Shown: piece by piece, positions 4,478-64,000 of the stretch
How positions within the stretch are numbered: the first letter of the stretch is position 1
How the letters are laid out: the number at the start of each line of letters is the position of its first letter
DNA from: an uncultured beta proteobacterium
Lineage (GTDB): Bacteria; Pseudomonadota; Gammaproteobacteria; Burkholderiales; Rhodocyclaceae
Direction: 5' to 3'
Assembly: GCA_963741765.1 (NCBI GenBank)
Contig: CAVUJN010000031.1
Coordinates: forward strand, 6,606-70,605
DNA length: 64,000 nucleotides
Notes under the pieces: generated by a model
What the model saw: the letters and a program-made list of their open reading frames with translations, nothing else
Database searches by the model: none
Told to the model about the DNA's origin: nothing
Position numbers and translations under genes: made by a program

Positions 4478-5766
4478 TGAGCGCCCCTGAAAACCTCCCG
4501 GAAATCGATAACGGCCTGCTGCGCTTCCTCACCTGCGGCAGCGTGGACGACGGCAAGAGCACGCTGATCGGCCGCCTGCTGTACGACACCCGCGCCATTC
4601 TTGCCGACACCCTGCACGCCATCACGCACACCTCGCACAAGCGCGGGCTGACCAATGTCAACCTTTCGCTGCTGACCGACGGTCTGGTCGCCGAACGCGA
4701 GCAGGGCATCACCATCGACGTCGCCTACCGTTACTTCAGCACCGGCACGCGCAAGTACATCGTCGCCGACGCGCCGGGCCATGAGCAATACACGCGCAAC
4801 ATGGTCACCGCGGCATCAACCGCCAACCTCGCCATCATTCTTGTCGATGCGCGCAAAGGCGTATTGGCGCAGACCCGGCGCCACGCGCTGATCGCGCATC
4901 TGGTCGGCATTCCGCATCTGGTCGTCGCGGTGAACAAGATGGATCTGGTCGGTCACGACCCCGCGGTGTTCGAGCGCATCCGCAGCGACTACCTCGATTT
5001 CGCGGGCCAGGTCGGCATCGGCGATGTCCGCTTCGTGCCGATGTCTGCGCTGAACGGCGACATGATCGTCGAGCGCGGCGACCGTCTGGACTGGTACACC
5101 GGTCCGACCCTGCTGGAAATTCTCGAGAACGCCCCCGGCGCCCACGGCGAGGCGGACAAGCGCGACGAGCCGTTCCGCTTCCCCGTGCAATACGTCTGCC
5201 GCCCGCAGCAGTCCGACGACCCCGGCCTGCACGATTATCGCGGCTACATGGGGCGCATCGAATCCGGTTCGATCGCCGTCGGCGACGCCATCGTCATCCT
5301 GCCCGCCGGTCGCGCCACGCGCATCAGGGACATCCAGATCGCCGGCCGCTCGCAGCCCATGGCCATTGCCGACCAGTCCGTCACGCTGTTGCTGGAAGAT
5401 GAAATCGACATCTCGCGCGGCGACATGATCGCGCGGGACGGCGCCCGGCCGGAAATCACCCAGGCCGTCCGCGCACAGCTCTGCTGGCTTTCCGAGACCC
5501 CGCTCGACCTGCGCCGCCGCTACCTGATCCGCCATACCACGCGCGACACCCAGGCCAGGCTGGCGAGCATCGATTACCGCCTCGACATCGCCACGCTGCG
5601 GCATGAACCGGCGACAAGCCTGGCGATGAACGACATCGCCCAGGTCGCCTTCCGTCTCGCCCGGCCCATCTGCGCCGATCGCTACGCCGACAACCGCGCG
5701 ACCGGCGCCTTCATCGTCATCGACGAAGCAAGCAACAATACCGTGGGGGCCGGCATGATCGTCTGA
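4477..5766 (+). CDS. cysN: Sulfate adenylyltransferase subunit 1 (GTPase)
   Basis: LRFLTCGSVDDGKSTLIGRLL, EREQGITIDVAYRYF, DAPGHEQYTRNM, VNKMD; TGATG overlap with cysD. Confidence 0.96.
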   Translation: MSAPENLPEIDNGLLRFLTCGSVDDGKSTLIGRLLYDTRAILADTLHAITHTSHKRGLTNVNLSLLTDGLVAEREQGITIDVAYRYFSTGTRKYIVADAPGHEQYTRNMVTAASTANLAIILVDARKGVLAQTRRHALIAHLVGIPHLVVAVNKMDLVGHDPAVFERIRSDYLDFAGQVGIGDVRFVPMSALNGDMIVERGDRLDWYTGPTLLEILENAPGAHGEADKRDEPFRFPVQYVCRPQQSDDPGLHDYRGYMGRIESGSIAVGDAIVILPAGRATRIRDIQIAGRSQPMAIADQSVTLLLEDEIDISRGDMIARDGARPEITQAVRAQLCWLSETPLDLRRRYLIRHTTRDTQARLASIDYRLDIATLRHEPATSLAMNDIAQVAFRLARPICADRYADNRATGAFIVIDEASNNTVGAGMIV

Positions 5767-5857
5767 GAAGCGTGCTGATTCACGGTCTGAAGCCCCCTTC
5801 CTGCGCCTGCTTCCTGCGCCCGATTTTCAGGCCATTTTCCGGGTCGACCGCAACGCT

Positions 5858-6835
5858 TCAGGAAAAGACGGGTTCCTCGAACAGTGAGCGGATCGTCACC
5901 TTTTTGATCTCCGGCCGATCCGGCACCGCGTAGAGCACCGGCGTGATCATCTCCTCGAAGATGCCGCGCAGGCTGCGCGCACCGACCTTGAATTCGAGCG
6001 CCAGGTCGGCGATCTGCCCGAACACCGCCGGTTCGATCACCAGTTCGACGCCCTCGTTTTGCAGGATGGCGCGGAACTGCCGGTAGATCGAATGCTGCGG
6101 CTCGATCATGATGCGCACCATCATGTCCTTCGACAGTTCCTTGAGCCGGGCGATGATCGGCAGGCGGCCGGCGAACTCGGGGATCAGCCCGAAGCGGAAG
6201 AGATCGGTTGGCTTGACGCGGGCATTCAGGCGGTCGAGCATCTTCTGGTCGTCGCTCGCCGCCGTGGCGATGAAGCCGAAAGCCTGAGTCTCGGCGAGGA
6301 TGGATTCCAGCCCGACGAAGGCGCCGCCGCAGATGAACAGGACCTGCGTGGTATCGATGTAGGCGCCGCTCTTGAGGCGCACGGTCGCGCCCTCCATGAT
6401 CTTCAGCAGCGCGTGCTGGACGTTTTCACCAGAGGCGGCGCGCGCCTGACCGCTGATCGCTTTCAGCTTGTCCACCTCGTCGATGAAGACGATGCCACGC
6501 CCGGCCTTTTCGGCATCGCCGCCGGCGCGTTCGAGCAGGCGCTGGAGGATGGCGTCGAGTTCCTCGTTGACGTATTCGGTCTGCGCCAGCGACGTCGCGT
6601 CGGCGGTGACGAAGGGCAGTTCGAGGATGCGCGCCAGGGTTTCGCACAGCAACGTCTTGCCTGTGCCGGTCGGGCCCATCAGCAGAATATTGCTTTTGAG
6701 CATTTCCAGGCGGTCGACCGCAACCATCTCGACCTTGCGGAAATGCGAATAGACGGCGACGGCGAGAATCTTCTTCGCGTCGTCCTGGCCGATCACATGG
6801 CGGTTAAGCTGGGCGACGATTTCACTCGGTTTCAT
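5858..6835 (-). CDS. ClpX-like AAA+ ATPase lacking the N-terminal zinc-binding domain
   Basis: Starts MKPSEIVAQLNRHVIGQDDAKK; GPTGTGKT Walker A, IVFIDEVDK Walker B, ILFICGGAF-like segment, PEFAGRL, GARSLR. About 325 aa; no clpP nearby. Confidence 0.88.
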   Translation of the reverse strand: MKPSEIVAQLNRHVIGQDDAKKILAVAVYSHFRKVEMVAVDRLEMLKSNILLMGPTGTGKTLLCETLARILELPFVTADATSLAQTEYVNEELDAILQRLLERAGGDAEKAGRGIVFIDEVDKLKAISGQARAASGENVQHALLKIMEGATVRLKSGAYIDTTQVLFICGGAFVGLESILAETQAFGFIATAASDDQKMLDRLNARVKPTDLFRFGLIPEFAGRLPIIARLKELSKDMMVRIMIEPQHSIYRQFRAILQNEGVELVIEPAVFGQIADLALEFKVGARSLRGIFEEMITPVLYAVPDRPEIKKVTIRSLFEEPVFS

Positions 6836-13001: not shown

Positions 13002-13104
13002 GATGTCTCCTGTTCTTATTTGCGGGAAAGCCGTTGGATGGCGCTGCAATGATAGCAGCGACACTATAGGACATGTGGGCGCTGGCGATGTTCAATCACC
13101 GGCG

Positions 13105-13140
13105 AAAAAATGCCCGGGCCGGAAAAGTCCGGGCCGGGCA
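13105..13140 (-). terminator. Rho-independent terminator after FKBP gene
   Basis: 13-bp stem with one mismatch (TGCCCGGGCCGGA / TCCGGGCCGGGCA) followed by a T6 run on the minus strand. Confidence 0.75.
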
Positions 13141-54002: not shown

Positions 54003-55247
54003 GTGACCAACGACTTTAGCGTTTTCTTCCTTGCCGCTTTCACGCTGACGCTTGCCGGCCGCCTGTGGCTGACCCTGCGCCAGATCCGCTTCGTTGCCGC
54101 CCACCGCGCCGCCGTTCCGGACGGTTTCACCGAGCGCATTTCACTCGCAGCCCACCAAAAAGCGGCCGATTACACGGTCAACCGCAACAGACTTGAAATT
54201 CTGACCACGCTGGTCAACGCCGCGCTGCTTCTCGCCTTGACGCTCGGCGGCGGGCTCGCCTGGCTGCACGATTTCTGGAGCGGGCGCCTTGCCGGGCTGC
54301 CCTACGGTCTGGCGCTGATTTTCAGCGTGATGCTCGTCTCGGCAGTGATCGATCTGCCCTTTTCGCTCTACCGCCAGTTCGTCATCGAGGCCCGTTACGG
54401 CTTCAACCGCATGAACCTCGCACTCTTCGTCGGCGATCTCGTGAAGCATGCGCTCCTCGGCATCGTCATTGGCGCCCCAGTGATCCTTGCCGTGCTGTGG
54501 CTGATGGGGGCCATGGGCAGTGCCTGGTGGTTCTCGGTTTGGCTCTTCTGGTGTGCCTTCAACCTGTTGATTCTGTTCATTTATCCGACCTGGATCGCGC
54601 CGCTGTTCAACAAATTCGCGCCACTCGAGGATGGCGAGATGAAGTCGCGCATCGAGGCCCTGCTGACGCGCTGCGGCTTCACCTCGTCCGGTCTGTTCGT
54701 CATGGACGGCTCGAAGCGTTCGAGCCACGGCAACGCCTACTTCACCGGCTTCGGCAACAACAAGCGCATCGTCTTCTTCGACACCCTGCTCTCCCGCCTC
54801 GCACCACCGGAAATCGAAGCCGTATTAGCACACGAACTCGGACATTTCCGCCGCCGCCATGTCGTCAAGCGCATCGTTTTCATGTTCGCCACCGCTCTCG
54901 GCTTTCTCTGGCTGCTCGGCCAGTTGATCGATGCGCCGTGGTTCTATGCCGGCCTCGGCGTGTCGGCGCAGAGCACTGCGCTGGCCCTGATCCTGTTCTT
55001 TCTCGTGATCCCGGTATTCACCTTCCCGCTCAGCCCGCTGCTCAGCCGCCTGTCGCGCCAGCACGAATTCGAAGCCGACGCCTACGCGGCCGAGCACACG
55101 GCTGCCGCCGACCTCAGCCGGGCACTGGTCAAGCTCTACGAAGACAATGCGTTAACCCTGACGCCCGATCCGCTGCATTCGCTGTTCTACGATTCGCACC
55201 CGCCGGCCGCGGTGCGCATCGCCCGCTTGCAGGCGGCAGCCCGCTGA
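54003..55247 (+). CDS. M48 family (Ste24-like) metallopeptidase
   Basis: DGSKRSSHGNAYFTG, VLAHELGH, SRQHEFEADAYA, SHPP. Confidence 0.95.
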   Translation: MTNDFSVFFLAAFTLTLAGRLWLTLRQIRFVAAHRAAVPDGFTERISLAAHQKAADYTVNRNRLEILTTLVNAALLLALTLGGGLAWLHDFWSGRLAGLPYGLALIFSVMLVSAVIDLPFSLYRQFVIEARYGFNRMNLALFVGDLVKHALLGIVIGAPVILAVLWLMGAMGSAWWFSVWLFWCAFNLLILFIYPTWIAPLFNKFAPLEDGEMKSRIEALLTRCGFTSSGLFVMDGSKRSSHGNAYFTGFGNNKRIVFFDTLLSRLAPPEIEAVLAHELGHFRRRHVVKRIVFMFATALGFLWLLGQLIDAPWFYAGLGVSAQSTALALILFFLVIPVFTFPLSPLLSRLSRQHEFEADAYAAEHTAAADLSRALVKLYEDNALTLTPDPLHSLFYDSHPPAAVRIARLQAAAR

Positions 55248-56130: not shown

Positions 56131-56232
56131 TCAGGATTTACCGGCCAGCCAGGCGCATGCGCCCAACCCGGCGGCGCGACCAGTAGTCATGCAGGCAGTC
56201 AGCAGATAACCGCCGGTCGGCGCTTCCCAGTC
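56131..56232 (-). pseudogene. Orphan 3' end of a HI0933/TIGR03862-family flavoprotein gene, cut by the adjacent element
   Basis: Reads DWEAPTGGYLLTACMTTGRAAGLGACAWLAGKS*, the family's C-terminal motif. Upstream of DWEAP the expected GEM(L/I) is replaced by AT-rich non-coding sequence. Confidence 0.85.
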
Positions 56233-56300
56233 GTTATAGTGGTACGCACATATCGCTTGCGCGAAAATATTTCCGTGTATAGTGTAAAGGTATATTAAGT

Positions 56301-57707
56301 ATGCATTTATACATGACTGCAAATTATGGCTATAAGTTGGTTTTTCCCGACGCCCAGCTGCTCACCGAGGCGGGCTTTGAAAAAGTCGCGCACGTCCCAA
56401 GTATTTTTGATTCTCAGCCGGGATATGCTCGATTAGCCAGTCAGTTTCTAATTGACCGAGCGTTAGGTTCTTGGGATCCTAAGAATCGAGGCGCTCGTCT
56501 CAACCCCCAGCCACCGTCCAGGGTATCTATAAGAAACATCGGCTATTGGCTTTGCAACGCGCTTGAGTGGGCAGAAGTGCGTGATGACATCAACCTGATG
56601 ACGGCGGACTACACCACGGTGCTAATTGGCCGCTACCAACATGAAATGTTGAAGGGCATCTGGTCAGCCCATCACGAGCCGCTGAGTGCCGAAACGGTCA
56701 ATGCGCGGGTGCGAACAGCGCTGGATTTCCAAATGTGGGGTGCTGACAAGGGCCACCGTGAGCCCTTCATAATTCCCACTGTGATACGTAGCTATGTGAC
56801 TGGATCCCACACCAACAGCAAAAGCCACGAAGCCAAGACCGTCGAATCGCGCAGGGGCAAGGTAAAGGTCAACAAGCGAACACTATCCTTCCCAAGAGAC
56901 GACGAGATCAAGGCATGGCGACAGCGCGTGTATGAACAACTAATTGTTGGCGCAACCGAAGGGTTGATGGTTGACCACATCCTGAATACCGCGATCCGGC
57001 GCGAGGAACTAGCCTGCTGGCGTGTTGATACCTTGCCTCTCAATCCCCAGCACTGGAAGGTCATCAACCCCAGCCAGCCCGAGGCGGTGCAGCAGGTCGT
57101 TGTCGAAATTAGGTTCGGCACGAAGGGCAGAGAGTTTTACATCGACGAATACGGCGACAAGGTAGGGCCGCAGGGCAACATTCATGTGCCCCTCTGGCAC
57201 GCAAAGCGCATTCATGAATACAGGCAAAAGGAAAGGCTGCTCTCCCTCAAACGTGCCACCAAAGGGCTCCGCGACCCAGCAAAAGCGCGGCGCATCATCG
57301 AGCAGAGTGTCCATCTTTACATCAATGCCAAGACCGGCAAGCGCTATAACGGCTCCCAAATCTATGAATTCTGGACCAACGTGGAGGGACCTAGACACTG
57401 GAGTCCACACCTGGGGCGGGATTGGTGGGCTTGCCAATATTTGTGGCAAAAAATGAAGGAACACATCGCTCTGATCAAGCAGGTACAGGGAATTGCCAAT
57501 CCCCACTCTGATCATCCTCTAGTGCGCGCATTGCGGGACATCGCCCAGACCGTGATCCAGTTCGACATCCAGCCACAACTGCGTCATGCCAGCAGTCAGA
57601 CCACCGAAATATACCTGCAGTGGCTGTTTAACCAGCTGCGCGTGCCGCTCGATCTGACGCGCAAATGGCAGGAAGAGGACGAATCAACCGAAGGTGAAAA
57701 ACCGTGA
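56301..57707 (+). CDS. Tyrosine recombinase 1 (468 aa)
   Basis: TAIRREE (catalytic R), SPHLGRDW (HxxR), QLRHASSQTTEIY (H and Y nucleophile). Confidence 0.85.
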   Translation: MHLYMTANYGYKLVFPDAQLLTEAGFEKVAHVPSIFDSQPGYARLASQFLIDRALGSWDPKNRGARLNPQPPSRVSIRNIGYWLCNALEWAEVRDDINLMTADYTTVLIGRYQHEMLKGIWSAHHEPLSAETVNARVRTALDFQMWGADKGHREPFIIPTVIRSYVTGSHTNSKSHEAKTVESRRGKVKVNKRTLSFPRDDEIKAWRQRVYEQLIVGATEGLMVDHILNTAIRREELACWRVDTLPLNPQHWKVINPSQPEAVQQVVVEIRFGTKGREFYIDEYGDKVGPQGNIHVPLWHAKRIHEYRQKERLLSLKRATKGLRDPAKARRIIEQSVHLYINAKTGKRYNGSQIYEFWTNVEGPRHWSPHLGRDWWACQYLWQKMKEHIALIKQVQGIANPHSDHPLVRALRDIAQTVIQFDIQPQLRHASSQTTEIYLQWLFNQLRVPLDLTRKWQEEDESTEGEKP

Positions 57708-59854
57708 GCATCCGCAACCCAATCAAGGATCACCTCAAGAAGCATGGCGGTGTCGAACTGGTCGAGCCGGTCCTGGCTCCAGCAACCGCCGATCCCCTCC
57801 GCTTCTGGACAAACCACCCAACGGAGCCCTATTTGGTTAACCTACATGTGTTTGCAAAAGGTGAATCGGAGAATCCCCATTCGGGCGGCGCCGGAATCTG
57901 GTCCGGCGCATTCTCCGGCCGCCCGGGGCTCATAGCCGAACTGGCCCCCGCAATCCAGGCACGCCTAACGTTGGCGGTTGCAGGTACGTGTGCAGGCTAC
58001 ACAAACGCGCTGCGCTCGTTCTGGCGCGTGTTCGATCAGTTGGAGGCTACGACCGTCCTTGACGGTCGAAAGGTGGAACGGCTGACTAGTGTGGCCCAGC
58101 TCACCCATTTACACGAAGCCGCCGCGCACCACGCCAATGTCGACTCGTCACGTTTCCAAATTTTTGTGCGCATCGTCGATGATGCGCGTCGGCTCTTGCG
58201 CCTTGCGCCCTTGTTGTGGCCCCTCCGTTCATTGGGTGAGCCGAAACGGCAATTGATTCCCGACAACCAGGCCAAGGCGATAAAGATCGCGATCAAGCAG
58301 GACTGGGAAAAGGTGCGCAAGAAATGGGCGCGGCATGACGCGATCCGTAGGGCGGAAGAACCTGACACACTCTCCAATTACGAAAGACATGATGCCTCAA
58401 TAGTTCGTCAGTACTCCGAGCACAATGAGGAGTTGCGGCACCATTGGCAGCACCTCGAGCGCATCCAGAATGCCACCAGCCGAATTCTACCGACGCCGGA
58501 GAAGTTACGAGATGGCGTATCCAACCTGAACGCGTACACCGGGCTTGAGCTGACGCTGATGCGCGCCATCGCCTTTCCGACACGCCATGAAGCCGACATT
58601 GCCTTCCATGCGGCGTTGATGGGCAGTGGCTGGAACCCGTTGACCTTAATTACCGGCATCGATGCCACCTTGCCCGAGCGCATCTTCCCGCACCCTAAGG
58701 ATGCCGGGCAGAACGTCCTGGTGGTCGATGCGCCCGCGGACGAGGTAGGCAACACAGAGGAAGTCACCATGCAGGGCAGCAAGCGCCGTGCCGGTGGGCG
58801 TACGCAGTTCTGCATGGGGCTTAAAAAGAACCCTGCCAGTCCACCCGCTATCGTTGCAGCCTGGCTAGAACGCACAGCAACACTCCGTAAGCAGTTGAAA
58901 CAGGACTGCGCGGCGGCAAGCGCCGAACTGACAAAACTCAAGGTAGGCGGGGCGCCGCAGGAAACCATCGAGCGACAGTTTATGCACGCGCAGAGCCTTC
59001 AGAGCGGCCTACGCAACGTTTGGCTATACGTCGATTTGAATGGAAAAATCAACTGGATCGACGGAAAAAGATGGGCGACTTACAGTCGCCCAGACGGGGC
59101 AAAGAAGAAACGCAGCTACCTCGACCAAGTCATCTCAGGCCTCAACGCCGAGCGGGCGGCCCGCGGCGAGCGGGAAATCGGTAACATTACCCCGAGCGAC
59201 TTCCGCGACATCTATGCCAGGTGGGTCTATAACCAGACAGGCGGCAATATCATCGCCGTTATGTTTGCATTGGGACATGCCAGCCTGAGATCCACCAACC
59301 CCTATGCCGATAACAACATCTACTCCGCCGAAGCCGACGAAACCGTGTTCCGCTTCATGACTCATTTGGCAAAGGAGCTGGAGCAAGGGCGTGTCGATCT
59401 CACCATCCTCGCGCAACTCGTGCGTCATGGACCGCTGTCTCCGGAGATGCGGGGGCGCCTGGAGGAATACCGCGGGCTGATGCTTTCGCGCATCAAGGTC
59501 GGCTGTGCCGACGTGAAGCATCCGCCACCCGACATCGAGCCAGATCACAAGGAGGGCGAGTGGTGCGGCACGCACCGCTGCCTGCGCGATTGCCGAAACG
59601 CACGGTTCCTCCCCGATTCACTGGACGGCATCTCCATGCGCGTCGAGGAACTGCTGGTCATGTCGGATTTCCTGCCGTTCGAGACTTGGATACGGGGCGA
59701 CTTTGAAAAGGAACTCGAGGCCGGCGAGTACCTACTGGCCGAGCTTTATCCTGCGGAAGCGGTGGAAAAGGCACGGACTCACTGGCGGGAAAAGATTGCT
59801 AGTGGCCATTACGTGGTACCGGGCGTGGGGCTGATTCGTAAGGAGGCGGCATGA
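57704..59854 (+). CDS. Tyrosine-recombinase-fold protein 2 (716 aa), degenerate active site
   Basis: SGWNPLTL (N where R is expected), PSDFRDIY (no H in HxxR), ALGHASLRSTNPY; Cys-rich C-terminus. Confidence 0.75.
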   Translation: MSIRNPIKDHLKKHGGVELVEPVLAPATADPLRFWTNHPTEPYLVNLHVFAKGESENPHSGGAGIWSGAFSGRPGLIAELAPAIQARLTLAVAGTCAGYTNALRSFWRVFDQLEATTVLDGRKVERLTSVAQLTHLHEAAAHHANVDSSRFQIFVRIVDDARRLLRLAPLLWPLRSLGEPKRQLIPDNQAKAIKIAIKQDWEKVRKKWARHDAIRRAEEPDTLSNYERHDASIVRQYSEHNEELRHHWQHLERIQNATSRILPTPEKLRDGVSNLNAYTGLELTLMRAIAFPTRHEADIAFHAALMGSGWNPLTLITGIDATLPERIFPHPKDAGQNVLVVDAPADEVGNTEEVTMQGSKRRAGGRTQFCMGLKKNPASPPAIVAAWLERTATLRKQLKQDCAAASAELTKLKVGGAPQETIERQFMHAQSLQSGLRNVWLYVDLNGKINWIDGKRWATYSRPDGAKKKRSYLDQVISGLNAERAARGEREIGNITPSDFRDIYARWVYNQTGGNIIAVMFALGHASLRSTNPYADNNIYSAEADETVFRFMTHLAKELEQGRVDLTILAQLVRHGPLSPEMRGRLEEYRGLMLSRIKVGCADVKHPPPDIEPDHKEGEWCGTHRCLRDCRNARFLPDSLDGISMRVEELLVMSDFLPFETWIRGDFEKELEAGEYLLAELYPAEAVEKARTHWREKIASGHYVVPGVGLIRKEAA

Positions 59855-61983
59855 ATTCACCCAACCATCTATCTGCCTCCTCCATCGACCCCGTCGATCC
59901 GGGCCGGATTGCCGCGCTGAACCGCTTCAAGCTGGAAGAGTTCCAGCACCTGTCGCAACATGACTTGCTGCTGGCGCAATCCATTGCCGGCCACGGCGAA
60001 GATTGGGGAATCTGGAAGACCCCCAAAGCCATTTACCCCGGAAAACTTCGATCCGACATTCGCTCCATCGACCTCGCCAAACGCCTGCGCGATTACCTTG
60101 CCAAGGAACCGATAGCCGAGACCTCGCTCGACGTGCTTGTGGATGAGGGGGTGCTGGTCCTAACGCGGTTGGCCTTGCTGCTGCGACTGGCACCTACCGG
60201 CGGGCAAAGCAAGTCAAAAAACCTGCGACTCAAGCCAAGTACGCTTGCACATCAGGTTTACCTAGTAGGTTCTAAAATCATCGCCCGCGCGATCCGGCGC
60301 AGGATCAAGCACCCCGACGCGACAGGACTGTTCGCCTGCCTCGACGAAGACGCCGTACGGGAACTGGGTCAGGATAAACGTACCCGAATCGAGCTTGAAC
60401 GACTCGCGACTCTGGCGGCGCGAGGCTGGTGGAGCGACCTGCCGCCGCAACCGGACGTTACCTGCACGACTAATCCACGAGGGCCAAAACAGGCCCGGCT
60501 GCTGGAGGACATTCCAGGCGAGTACCAGCCTATCCCAGACGATTGGTTGGCTGAAATTGGTCCCCGCATCCTGTGGCTGATCCGTGACCTGGGACAGAAT
60601 CTGCTTCCCTTGCTGGAGGACTTCCTCGACTATCTGGAAAGCTTGGATTGGTCGGAGATGACGAGAGACAAAATTCAAACTTGCGTCAACAAATTCATTG
60701 CGAGGCATCTGCTCGAACACCCGTGGATGGATCGCACTGGCAAACTGCTCCAACCCTGCTTCCCGCTGACGACCAGCAGAAAATCTAAGGGCAATTTCGA
60801 GTGGCCGCCTCGAAACTACAAGCAACTGAAGATCCTCAGCGGCGCCCTGCAGTCGGCGCACCTGTTTTTCACTCTACTCGCTTCTGCAGGGCGCATCGGT
60901 GAAATCGAAACGCTGCCGCGTTCGTGCGTAAGGCCCGAGCGGGACGGCAAGGACTACGTGTGCGGGTGGACTTACAAGCTCTCTGGCAGCCTGTTCGGGG
61001 ATGCCCGCCAATGGCCGGCGCCTGTGGTGCTGGTGCAGGCGCTTGGGCAACAGGCGCGCCTTGCGGCTGTCTGGAGTCGCCTGCCGCCCGGACAACTTCA
61101 AGACGGTCTCCCCACTGCTCTTCCCGCCCACCAGGCTCTGTGGCTCTCGCTCGGAGTCGGAGGCAAAGGCAGCGCGGCCAATCAGTTAGGCCACTGTGGC
61201 AACGCGCTACGGGTGCTCGCTAAACACGTGGGCATGGATCCGAAACCCGGAGGGATCAACCTGCATCCTCACCGATTTCGGAAGACCATCGGGCGGCTCG
61301 CCGGGGTTGCGCTGTTCAATTCCCCGCTGGTGCTGAAGCGACTCTTTGGCCATAAGCGTATCGAGATGACCCTGCACTACATCCTCTGCGACCCGGACAT
61401 CCGAACGGAAGCAGAGAGGGTGCTACGCGAACTGCGCATCCTGAATTGCGCCGAGGCGCTGGAGGAAGTGCGAGACGCCATCGTTGCGGGCGCCACGCTG
61501 CCCGGTCACAGCGGCGCACCGGCGGAGCGATTGGTAGAGGCGGTTCAGGCACACGAGGCCCACCTTGCCAAAGCCGGCTGCGTCTGGGTGGATGGCAGCG
61601 CCTACGAACTCGCGTACCTGATGACGGCCAACGGCCAGGGCTGGCGCTTCATCCAGAAAAATATCGTGTGCACCAAGGTGCCCGGCGAGGACGGCTTATG
61701 CCGCAAGAAGCGCAACCGGGGCGAGCCAGATACATCGAACTGCAAGCTAGAATGCAGCAACCGAATCGTGCTCGCGCTTGAACGAAGGGACGTCGGAGAG
61801 GTCGTTGAAAGCTACCTCGACGTCGCCCGTCGGGCTCGTGCCGATGAGCAATACATGGTCTTGTACGAGGCGATGCAACGGTTCGCTGAGGAACTGGACT
61901 CCTTCCCGGATATCAAGGCTCAGTACCTGGCCGACTCGGACGTGCAGTCGCTGCTCGCCACATGTCAGGAACTTCCTCAATGA
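59851..61983 (+). CDS. Tyrosine recombinase 3 (710 aa)
   Basis: SAGRIGEIETL, LHPHRFRKT, LFGHKRIEMTLHY; Cys-rich C-terminus. Confidence 0.88.
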   Translation: MNSPNHLSASSIDPVDPGRIAALNRFKLEEFQHLSQHDLLLAQSIAGHGEDWGIWKTPKAIYPGKLRSDIRSIDLAKRLRDYLAKEPIAETSLDVLVDEGVLVLTRLALLLRLAPTGGQSKSKNLRLKPSTLAHQVYLVGSKIIARAIRRRIKHPDATGLFACLDEDAVRELGQDKRTRIELERLATLAARGWWSDLPPQPDVTCTTNPRGPKQARLLEDIPGEYQPIPDDWLAEIGPRILWLIRDLGQNLLPLLEDFLDYLESLDWSEMTRDKIQTCVNKFIARHLLEHPWMDRTGKLLQPCFPLTTSRKSKGNFEWPPRNYKQLKILSGALQSAHLFFTLLASAGRIGEIETLPRSCVRPERDGKDYVCGWTYKLSGSLFGDARQWPAPVVLVQALGQQARLAAVWSRLPPGQLQDGLPTALPAHQALWLSLGVGGKGSAANQLGHCGNALRVLAKHVGMDPKPGGINLHPHRFRKTIGRLAGVALFNSPLVLKRLFGHKRIEMTLHYILCDPDIRTEAERVLRELRILNCAEALEEVRDAIVAGATLPGHSGAPAERLVEAVQAHEAHLAKAGCVWVDGSAYELAYLMTANGQGWRFIQKNIVCTKVPGEDGLCRKKRNRGEPDTSNCKLECSNRIVLALERRDVGEVVESYLDVARRARADEQYMVLYEAMQRFAEELDSFPDIKAQYLADSDVQSLLATCQELPQ

Positions 61984-62504
61984 GCGAACAGCACAAACTC
62001 GCCGCGGCCCGGCGCGGCGCCGCACGCACCGCGCAGATGGAACAGCAGGTGACCGAGGCGATGCGGGCGATCCACGCCGACCTACAGGCCAACGACGGCA
62101 TCTATCCACACAACGGCGGCGCGGTCAGCATGGCGGAACTGGCGCGGCGGGCAGGCATCAGCGAGTCGAGTTTCTACAAGAAGGAGCCAGAGAATGTCGC
62201 CCTTAAGGAACGGGCCGCGCTCTGGCTCGACACGCTCAAGAAGAAGGAAACCGTGGGGCGCATGCGCGTCAAGAAGACGCTGTCCCAACGGGCAGAGGAT
62301 TGGCATCAGAAGCACGCTGCCCTAGAGCAGCGTCACATATGCACTGAACTGGAACTGCAGGCAAGCAAGGCCGAGTGGGAAAAGGAGCACAAGGAATTGA
62401 CCGAAAAGATCGCTACCCTAGAACGTGAAAACGCCACCTTGATCGAACTACTCAAATCCGGCGGCGACCGAAAAGTGACACCGCTGCGAGTCAAGGAGAA
62501 ATAA
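61980..62504 (+). CDS. HTH plus coiled-coil accessory protein (TnpC-like)
   Basis: VSMAELARRAGISESSFY HTH-like segment; C-terminal heptad region; ATGA overlap. Confidence 0.75.
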   Translation: MSEQHKLAAARRGAARTAQMEQQVTEAMRAIHADLQANDGIYPHNGGAVSMAELARRAGISESSFYKKEPENVALKERAALWLDTLKKKETVGRMRVKKTLSQRAEDWHQKHAALEQRHICTELELQASKAEWEKEHKELTEKIATLERENATLIELLKSGGDRKVTPLRVKEK

Positions 62505-62999
62505 ATGGCCCGCCCCAGCATCATTCCATCCGTCCGGCTGCGCCTTGAGGAATACCTTGAGCAACACGAGGCCGAGTACTTGGCCCAACCCGAGGCCACC
62601 CGCAAGCCGACCCTGCCCTACACCGGTGACTTCAAGGTCAACGTCCGTGCTCTGGCCGAAGCCATTGGCCTCAAGCAGACCCAGGAGAAGTACCTGTACG
62701 AGCGTGAGGAACTGTTCAGTCTCGTAAACCTCACCGCCGAGGGCCAAGGCCTGCTGCCGATTGGCGCACGCACCCAGCCGCAGATCGACAAGTCGATCCG
62801 GGAGCGGTTGATCATGCAAGCCACGGGAGCGCGCGTAGATGCGCAGGCTGCCGTAGAGTCCAAGGCTCGGGAGGAAGCGTTGACTGAAGCCCTTGCCCTA
62901 GCTAACAGCCAGAACGCCGATTTACGAGCTGAAAACACCCGTTTGCGCGCGCGTCTGGAAATGGTTCAGAACGGAATGCTGGCGCGAGTGGACGAATGA
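62505..62999 (+). CDS. Second HTH plus coiled-coil accessory protein
   Basis: KVNVRALAEAIGL HTH-like segment; C-terminal LRAENTRLRARLE coiled coil; TAAATG junction. Confidence 0.75.
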   Translation: MARPSIIPSVRLRLEEYLEQHEAEYLAQPEATRKPTLPYTGDFKVNVRALAEAIGLKQTQEKYLYEREELFSLVNLTAEGQGLLPIGARTQPQIDKSIRERLIMQATGARVDAQAAVESKAREEALTEALALANSQNADLRAENTRLRARLEMVQNGMLARVDE

Positions 63000-64000
63000 T
63001 CAAGGCCGGCTCGACCCAAGTCACCGTTGAACGCGTGCTCTCGAAGCTGGAGAGGGGCGTGATCTTCTCCGGCCGTCAGGCGGACGGTGAGCGGATTCGG
63101 GTCAAGCTCTCAGGCATCGACCTGTCTCCTGAAATCGGCGAGACGTATCACGTTAACGGACTGATCCACACCTTCACGGATAAGTTCAAGGTCTCGGTCA
63201 AGCAGATCAATGTCAGCAAGATCACGCGGGTCAATGCCGTAGGTGCCCTGTTGATACCATTCCTTGAGCGTTTGCCGAATGTCGGGCCTGTTCGGGCAAA
63301 GCGGCTGCTTGAAGCCTTCGGTGATGATCTGACCCAAGCCCTGACCGATCCCGATCGGCTGGGCGAGGTGGCAAAGGCACTCGACCCCGCCAAGCCCGTC
63401 CTCGCCAGCAAGATTGCCGCTCAGGTGTTTTCCGCGATGACCCACAAGGCCGAGGAAGAAAACTCAGCCAGAGCAGAAGTTGAGTTCCTCTCCTTGCTTG
63501 AAAAAGCCGGAGTGACCAAGACCGGCGCGGCTCGGCAACTGTGGCGCTTGGTGGGTGGTGCGGGATCGCAGGAACGCTTGCTCAAGAACCCCTACCTCGC
63601 TGCTAGCATCCTCGATTGGAAGTCAGCCGATCACCTCGGCAAGAACCTGCTCAGGCAGGCTGACCCGAAGATCGACGTCAAGGATCACCCCCATCGCTTG
63701 CTTGGTGCGGTGGATAGCGTCTGGCGTGACCTATTGGGCGACGGGGACAGCGCCAGCGAGGAAGAACCTTTCTTAGCCCTTTTGCGTCGTCGTGGCGTCG
63801 ATCCCGATCTTGCCCTAGGCCTTGCCCGCAAGAAAGGCGCTGTGGCTGAATCTGAGGCATTGCTGCGCGCTCCTGGTGCCGCCTACATTGAGAACTCGCT
63901 GGCGAACCGGCTGCACGACATGGAGCAAGCCGTTTGCCCGGTCATTATCCCCGATGATCGACGCCTCATGGAATTAGTTAATCAAGCGGAGGCGGATACC
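62996..64000 (+). CDS. RecD2-like helicase, N-terminal part (truncated by window end)
   Basis: ATG at 62996 stays open for 335 codons to the window end (absent from the ORF track because no stop). OB-like N-terminus, HhH LPNVGPVRAKRLLEAFG, KNPY, ADHLG, GDS: the layout of RecD2 N-terminal domains. Helicase motifs would lie beyond the window. Confidence 0.78.
   Translation, partial: MIKAGSTQVTVERVLSKLERGVIFSGRQADGERIRVKLSGIDLSPEIGETYHVNGLIHTFTDKFKVSVKQINVSKITRVNAVGALLIPFLERLPNVGPVRAKRLLEAFGDDLTQALTDPDRLGEVAKALDPAKPVLASKIAAQVFSAMTHKAEEENSARAEVEFLSLLEKAGVTKTGAARQLWRLVGGAGSQERLLKNPYLAASILDWKSADHLGKNLLRQADPKIDVKDHPHRLLGAVDSVWRDLLGDGDSASEEEPFLALLRRRGVDPDLALGLARKKGAVAESEALLRAPGAAYIENSLANRLHDMEQAVCPVIIPDDRRLMELVNQAEADT

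Follow-up and report, generated by a model that had tools for sequence, protein, structure and literature searches.

At the right end of the 64,000-nucleotide stretch analysed here (the window; contig CAVUJN010000031.1 of an uncultured beta proteobacterium), six forward open reading frames (ORFs) follow one another with short overlaps or none, and are referred to below as genes A to E and the helicase gene (Table 1). A check of the ORFs of the window placed all six frames and all five overlap or abutment junctions where a sequence-only reading of the same DNA had first noted them, with a purine-rich Shine-Dalgarno-like stretch ahead of each junction. These overlaps are found again in about 35 related loci and hence are not due to chance, and the coupling of the six genes proposed in that reading stands. 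The last ORF has a complete length of 724 aa, taken from near-identical metagenome contigs, in which the integrated mobile element that starts at 56234 extends over more than 11 kb. Its left part occupies window 56234-64000, and we consider the element, with a probability of about 80%, to be a helicase-bearing copy of a separate, unnamed and mainly betaproteobacterial family within the SE/GInt class of elements that use several tyrosine recombinases. Conjugation genes are absent, a feature in common with SEs.

Table 1 Features of the element and its insertion point in the window.
Feature	Position	Strand	Remarks
Severed 3' end of host TIGR03862/HI0933-like flavoprotein gene	56131..56233	-	Last 33 codons and stop; attL host arm
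Element left end	56234..56300	+	Terminal repeat TTATAGTGG, conserved CGCTTGCGCGAAA box, promoter-like AT-rich stretch before gene A
Gene A	56301..57707	+	468 aa
Gene B	57704..59854	+	716 aa
Gene C	59851..61983	+	710 aa
Gene D	61980..62504	+	174 aa; alternative 180-aa reading from 61962
Gene E	62505..62999	+	164 aa
Helicase gene	62996..64000	+	N-terminal 335 aa; window end cuts the ORF
Junction strings	GTGA 57704; ATGA 59851; ATGA 61980; TAAATG 62502-62507; ATGA 62996	+	

The element interrupts a flavoprotein gene, whose severed fragment in the window translates on the minus strand as ...DWEAPTGGYLLTACMTTGRAAGLGACAWLAGKS*. The cut falls within the codon preceding an Asp and about 34 residues are lost. 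Three lines of evidence place the junction at 56233/56234. Metagenome contigs with a host background that is about 10% diverged turn identical to the window from 56210 on. Contigs from four metagenomes that reach 56233 run on as AGCATCTCGCC... or AGCATCTCGCCGGCGCAGAAGAC, which is the unbroken gene (PGVFCAGEML/DWEAPTGGY, the slash marking the junction). Finally, two empty-site contigs (L080 and L083) carry an intact 414-aa flavoprotein gene with an identical flank and part from the window at precisely 56234. On the minus strand, the 5' portion of the host gene is represented by AGCATTTCGCCGGCACAG. The RsgA encoded in the flank of the empty-site contigs is identical to that of L001, one of the contigs near-identical to the window, and 99% identical to that of the window, and over the 120 nt following the rsgA stop their DNA equals the window. 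The element start at 56233 given in the sequence-only reading was thus essentially exact. Filled and empty alleles occur within one species, so the element has moved recently. The final 6 bp of the host arm, CAGTCG (56228-56233), presumably form the crossover spacer. The junction TCG/TTATAG is also found in four related loci (L076, L037, L040 and L022), and L076, a relative at about 80% nucleotide identity, occupies the same site of the same gene elsewhere, adjoining crcB.

Pfam and NCBIfam searches with the six window proteins gave sub-threshold matches only, so that the recombinase status of the first three was shown through family alignments and orthologues. The latter reach or approach the Pfam Phage_integrase threshold (28 bits for Microvirga A, 37 bits for Microvirga B and 27.1 bits for Dechloromonas C). 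In the alignments, from which the catalytic residues were called, complete and invariant sets are present in A (R233, K275, H370, R373, H429, Y438; conservation across 38 homologues) and in C (R348, K376, H474, R477, H501, Y510). In B an invariant G309-W310-N311 stands at the Arg-I position, with Trp for Arg, and the His of HxxR is missing; K360, R501, H525 and Y534 are kept. The earlier description of three recombinases therefore holds for A and C, which have the full R-K-H-R-H-Y set, and not fully for B. C-terminal of the catalytic Tyr, B and C contain conserved clusters of three or four Cys (C601, C621 and C626 in B, encoded at window 59504-59593; C607, C617, C631 and C635 in C, encoded at 61669-61755), which may be zinc-binding modules. 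Similar clusters occur in the SE proteins Tfp and IntB, and a C-x19-C spacing is common to B and Tfp. No profile similarity was found between these C-terminal regions of B and C and Tfp, IntB, GinB or GinC.

The product of gene D contains a helix-turn-helix (HTH)-like segment and matches SE Srap with a hidden Markov model (HMM) E-value of 4e-6; matches to DUF6262 and TetR_N are sub-threshold. By analogy with SEs and GInts, A and C would perform strand cleavage and joining, and B, which has no Arg-I, and the Srap-like D would be non-catalytic assembly or DNA-binding partners. The product of gene E is highly conserved, with 287 homologues, all of about 165 aa and none with a name or a Pfam match. 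Its structural model consists of short helices and one long C-terminal helix at residues 92-155, a fold search gave no PDB match, and E does not match defence models. D and E had been described as two HTH/coiled-coil proteins, which is in part correct, as D has a sub-threshold HTH match and the model of E contains the long helix without a significant PDB counterpart.

The full-length helicase (L001) is composed of an N-terminal HHH region, AAA_30/AAA_19, an inserted RecD-type SH3 domain (SH3_13) and a UvrD_C_2 tail, and its Walker A (GAGVGKTT) and Walker B (DEASM) motifs are intact. This order (HHH, two RecA-like domains, SH3 insert, UvrD_C_2), together with the intact ATPase motifs, is that of RecD2, and the best solved relative is RecD2 of D. 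radiodurans (PDB 3E1S, 1e-28). As it scores 237 bits on TIGR01448 (RecD2), whose cut-off is 500, the protein is a RecD2-like SF1B helicase, a divergent paralogue rather than an equivalog. Unlike RecD2, it belongs to a mobile element, in which its gene is coupled to that of a 164-aa partner, E. Domain searches of the full-length protein revealed no relaxase domain, and it also matches the PADLOC models typeIV_RecD and RecD_like.

A scan of GTDB species-representative genomes yielded 39 loci of the family, of which 37 distinct ones were used for gene content. They lie mostly in Rhodocyclales and Burkholderiales, with a few in Gammaproteobacteria (Methylomonas, Pseudomonas, Aeromonadaceae) and Alphaproteobacteria (Microvirga). 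Homologues of the C protein number more than 220, at 53-75% identity, and none of them carries a name. Genes A, B, C and D stand in the same order at essentially every locus, and the pairwise identities of A, B and D correlate with those of C at r = 0.92-0.98. E and the helicase are present at about 18 of the 37 distinct loci, with truncated remnants of E in three or four more, and their identities correlate with those of C at r ~0.5 only, remaining flat at 50-60% while C spans 29%-70%. Reciprocal look-ups based on E placed the pair immediately after D each time, with overlaps of 1-4 nt, even in decayed copies of Ralstonia solanacearum. This pattern of presence and co-variation divides the six genes into a conserved, co-evolving core, A-B-C-D, and a two-gene accessory, E and the helicase, which is always coupled behind D and is either exchanged between lineages or lost while the same coupled position is kept. 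The view of one six-gene module, although the six genes alone do form a natural element in an Ideonella MAG (metagenome-assembled genome; L037), is better replaced by this division, and lack of conservation of the helicase with the recombinase trio, which had been named as an observation that would speak against a distinct family, is half borne out. The Ralstonia solanacearum copies are decayed by insertions of the IS3 or IS66 family into the A-C region; two chromosomal copies (L088 and L089) still have D and E with a complete or partial helicase, and the copy on pRsT78 (L006) is without E and the helicase.

What the accessory pair does can be read in two ways. In our best guess the 5'-3' helicase would unwind a nicked or single-strand-bridged intermediate, such that the circular copy could be completed or replicated, and would thereby take part in transposition. 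Such a role in unwinding or replication fits the constant coupled position, the existence of a minimal element of six genes and the model for SEs, in which single-strand exchange is followed by replication. Alternatively, E and the helicase could be cargo, for example a defence, anti-defence or maintenance pair, lodged behind the recombination operon with no part in movement. This would agree with the absence of the pair from about half of the family, with its evolution independently of A-D and with the PADLOC matches of the helicase. It is harder to reconcile with a position directly behind D in every context examined, with the Ideonella element, with the E remnants at helicase-less loci, which suggest loss rather than original absence, and with the missing defence-model match of E. 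Overall, we regard a pure cargo role as possible but rather unlikely.

The families with which the locus had first been compared, namely RIT elements, Tn554 and the Gamma-Mobile-Trio (GMT), are not its closest relatives, and gene number, size or domain content bear out the earlier conclusion that it belongs to none of them. RIT elements consist of three recombinases of about 315-410 aa, all catalytic, with 34-bp inverted repeats and no further genes (as summarised in PMC10214605); here, the proteins have 468, 716 and 710 aa, the catalytic set of B is incomplete and a fourth conserved gene is present. Tn554 resembles the element in its transposition by tyrosine recombinases, target specificity, 6-bp footprint and small third protein. 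It has two recombinases (TnpA and TnpB) plus TnpC and is found in Firmicutes, whereas three recombinase-like genes are present here, a separation that is made on description only. GMT consists of three genes, encoding GmtY (DNA_BRE_C), GmtZ (Phage_Integr_2) and the StbA-like GmtX (bioRxiv 10.1101/2023.03.28.534373). None of the six proteins has a Phage_Integr_2 or StbA-type match in Pfam, and the core has four genes. The Delftia phn island, considered as a possible earlier description, carries a P4-type integrase and is unrelated.

The closest families, SEs and GInts, had been left out of that comparison. In both, all four genes of the operon are needed for recombination (PMC10214605, PMC5385486). 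The family was compared by hhalign with small reference profiles, for which GInts and SEs from E. coli Sakai and from plasmids were used. A matched SE IntA with a probability of 95.7% and GInt GinA with 94.2%, the reference IntA and GinA matching each other with 96.9%. D matched Srap with 94.2% (E 1e-7) and GinD with 16%. For B and Tfp the probability was 9% with the whole protein and 43% with its N-terminal part, and C matched IntB with 53%, about the same as IntA or GinB (about 50% each), and GinC with 21%. By these probabilities the family is about as far from SEs as SEs are from GInts. Less sensitive comparisons gave little: with one GInt and one SE as reference, BLASTP found nothing among the SE proteins and marginal matches only among the GInt proteins, single-sequence hhalign was too weak, the GinC and GinD HMMs gave E-values of at least 0.01 with the window proteins, and scans of IMG/VR with GinC and Tfp returned only the self match or nothing.

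The element might be a divergent SE, with genes orthologous to intA-tfp-intB-srap. The operon layout at the left end agrees, with four coupled genes of the same order and similar size (about 430/575/680/150 aa in SEs versus 468/716/710/174 aa), kept in about 37 loci. RHRY is found in the first and third proteins and not in the second, an arrangement described for SEs, although in six aligned SE Tfp sequences candidate R/K/R/H/Y residues are conserved. D is homologous to Srap, and relatives of the window element have short imperfect terminal inverted repeats, a 6-bp spacer and, in a new attR, bases from the donor attL; the terminal inverted repeats of SEs are 13-19 bp long and imperfect (PMC10214605). 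Against orthology, A is equally close to GinA, C is no closer to IntB than to IntA or GinB, B and Tfp are barely linked and BLASTP detects no relationship. SEs have been reported only from Gammaproteobacteria, unlike the present loci, and a PSI-BLAST search by the SE authors found no homologues of Tfp or Srap in Alpha- or Betaproteobacteria (PMC10214605). The extra E-helicase pair of half the family also sets it apart, as no SE has been reported with a helicase, a word absent from that paper (PMC10214605). Membership of the SEs proper is therefore unlikely.

Even less probable is that the element is a GInt, also in the broad sense of Bardaji et al., in which an operon of three integrase genes and one for a small protein is combined with cargo and a short right end. 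This layout is shared, including the operon at the 5' end and the variable cargo, as are site-specific insertion into conserved genes and the A-GinA similarity. Junction repeats are imperfect in both, with 6-7 nt in relatives of the element and direct repeats of 10-17 nt in GInts (PMC5385486). However, homology of C to GinC and of D to GinD was not found, the described GInts contain no helicase pair, BLASTP matches are marginal, and the protein without Arg-I is encoded by the second gene, whereas in GInts it is GinC, encoded by the third (PMC5385486). In D, in the place of the atypical recombinase and in the way its ends behave, the family leans to SEs; it is a third, distant, undescribed and mainly betaproteobacterial family of the SE/GInt kind. 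The proposal of a distinct family of site-specific integrative elements is upheld in this form, and only a wholly distinct class would claim too much, given the matches of A to IntA and GinA and of D to Srap. No paper was found in the literature that describes the window family or an SE or GInt bearing a helicase.

Complete relatives show how such elements end and move. Two copies of 14.1 kb are present in Dechloromonas sp. ARDL1, which differ at 3 of 14,117 positions (99.98% identity) and interrupt an ABC-F gene in one case and a methyltransferase-like gene in the other. The Ideonella element L037, 9.4 kb long and inserted in the Walker B codons of comM, contains nothing but the six genes and a right end of about 370 bp. 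A further genome has a comM element of about 12 kb with arsenic-resistance (ars) cargo, and Piscinibacter a complete element in rarA. Insertion targets are conserved coding motifs that differ by lineage (comM Walker B, rarA, the ABC-F gene, TIGR03862). The right ends have GGGATACTCNTC in common, at a distance of 26 nt from the junction, and the left ends start with TTATAG, TTACAC or TTTTAC right after host ...CG or ...GG. The two ends together make up short, imperfect inverted repeats on either side of a 6-bp spacer, by eye at about 11 of 14 positions in L037 and more weakly in L039 and L027, and the direct repeats at the junctions are 6-7 nt long and imperfect (TTCCTCG with TTCATCG, TTCTACG with ATCTACG).

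In SEs, the 6 bp beside the left end are taken into the circle and are later found in the new attR, and the 6 bp of attB stay in attL (PMC10214605). The same asymmetry is seen in one natural event in ARDL1. The copy in the ABC-F gene (L027) has the attL ...TACC-TGGAGG/TTTTACGG, in which TGGAGG is host ABC-F sequence, and the attR ...CCGTATAC-TTGAGG/ACTTTCTG. In the other copy (L044) attR reads ...CCGTATAC-TGGAGG/CCTTTCTG, with a spacer identical to the host bases beside the left end of L027. As the attR of the newer copy carries the 6 bp of the left flank of a donor that is still in place, the event supports a circular route of movement that is copy-out-like, followed by paste-in. Empty and filled alleles coexist in the host species and both ARDL1 copies persist, and neither of these observations shows how circles arise. 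On another contig (L014 5345-5400, shared with L072) an inverted right end of the family (GGGATACTCATC...CCGTATAC-CAGTCG/) is found upstream of gene A in a close relative, at a distance of about 1 kb. The spacer of this end, CAGTCG, is that of the TIGR03862 target, as if it were the footprint of a donor at that site.

Beyond the window, the helicase gene is followed directly by a full-length gene for a TIGR03862 flavoprotein (L001 11186-12472, plus strand; 530 bits to TIGR03862), whose 3' end forms an inverted repeat of 72 nt at 72% identity with the severed host fragment. Such a copy lies behind the helicase in L001, L015 and L076. Similarly, the Dechloromonas element that splits the ABC-F gene carries an ABC-F copy (L027 15346-17247), 57% identical to that of the host, and in both lineages the carried copy is inverted relative to the host target. 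The carried paralogue may be a compensation for the insertion. An origin by capture of flanking DNA at excision is unlikely, since a target split by the insertion cannot yield a full-length copy, and the Dechloromonas copy is only 57% identical. Taken together with the helicase, these observations allow the tentative and rather doubtful proposal of the first tyrosine-recombinase copy-out element with a replication or processing helicase of its own, in which E and the RecD2-like protein would act as a pair on a nicked circle, and some lineages would in addition neutralise the cost of insertion by a full-length copy of the target (TIGR03862 here, ABC-F in Dechloromonas) as a selected compensation.

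Further downstream in L001 (13104-13320), the sequence TGTCGTTTTCAGTAGACGACTGCAC at 13104-13128 is a terminal repeat followed by a TniA-like N-terminus. We take it to be a terminal inverted repeat of the Tn5053/Tn402 type, from whose consensus it differs at two positions. This transposon, nested in the cargo of the element, is the break point of all metagenome contigs. The right end of the copy in the window was not recovered by two metagenome pattern scans, which returned nothing, or chance matches and the L014 contig, and a look-up of proteins identical to the RsgA of the window yielded no record. The cargo of L076 (14865-20495) is a different one and comprises an SMC_N/AAA_23 ATPase of 889 aa and then an nSTAND3-domain protein, which look like defence genes.

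The flank of the element in the window contains orn, an M48 peptidase gene and rsgA. As the RsgA shares 99% identity with its counterpart in an Azonexus sp. MAG and about 91% with that of Candidatus Dechloromonas phosphoritropha, the host is a Rhodocyclales betaproteobacterium, Azonexus/Dechloromonas-like. Over window 56192-56232, word depth rises 10- to 40-fold in four metagenomes. The 40 nt encode the DWEAPTGGY motif, and since they are nearly exact in many community members the target of the element is among the best conserved parts of the gene. Within the M48 peptidase gene the 5' part (window 54137-54722) differs from L001 by about 17%, the DNA being about 99.9% identical elsewhere, and looks like a tract of homologous recombination between strains. 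In two contigs of a Dechloromonas sp. with a 91% identical RsgA (L086 and L087, about 4900-6165), the TIGR03862 gene beside rsgA is called as a 176-aa N-terminal ORF only. TIGR03862-like sequence continues toward rsgA past the called ORF, with no element there, which suggests a pseudogene.

Several points weigh against placing the window element as a helicase-bearing member of an SE/GInt-type family. On profile evidence B and C do not appear tied to Tfp and IntB or to GinB and GinC. The AlphaFold model of C (pLDDT, the predicted local distance difference test, of 75) has Cre as its top PDB match, and as the commonest among the matches listed, with neither this nor any other PDB entry listed being a significant match. 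The size, attR and terminal repeats of the window's copy are extrapolated from relatives, and the footprint argument comes from a single natural event, again in a relative. The sequences searched were assembled contigs, in which circles or joints do not show. The helicase, in turn, need not serve transposition, considering that it matches defence-associated RecD models and that, with E, it is missing from about half of the family and evolves independently of A-D.

SEs and GInts have recently been recognised as vehicles for resistance, virulence and defence genes, and how they move, with three recombinase-like proteins, strand-biased circles and no empty site left behind, is unsettled. Through the optional helicase pair one can ask directly if unwinding or replication of the intermediate takes place, and natural test material is available in the minimal 9.4 kb element and in the cultured Dechloromonas sp. 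ARDL1 with its two copies and readable footprint. The leads of most interest are the SE-type footprint outside Gammaproteobacteria, the helicase pair and the full-length target paralogue in two independent lineages. As the cargo of the family includes arsenic-resistance and defence-like genes and a nested transposon, its annotation would aid the reading of mobilomes and MAGs of Betaproteobacteria from wastewater and sediment. That the same plan of four genes recurs in a third and distant family shows it to be older and more widely distributed than the range reported for SEs, which is gammaproteobacterial.

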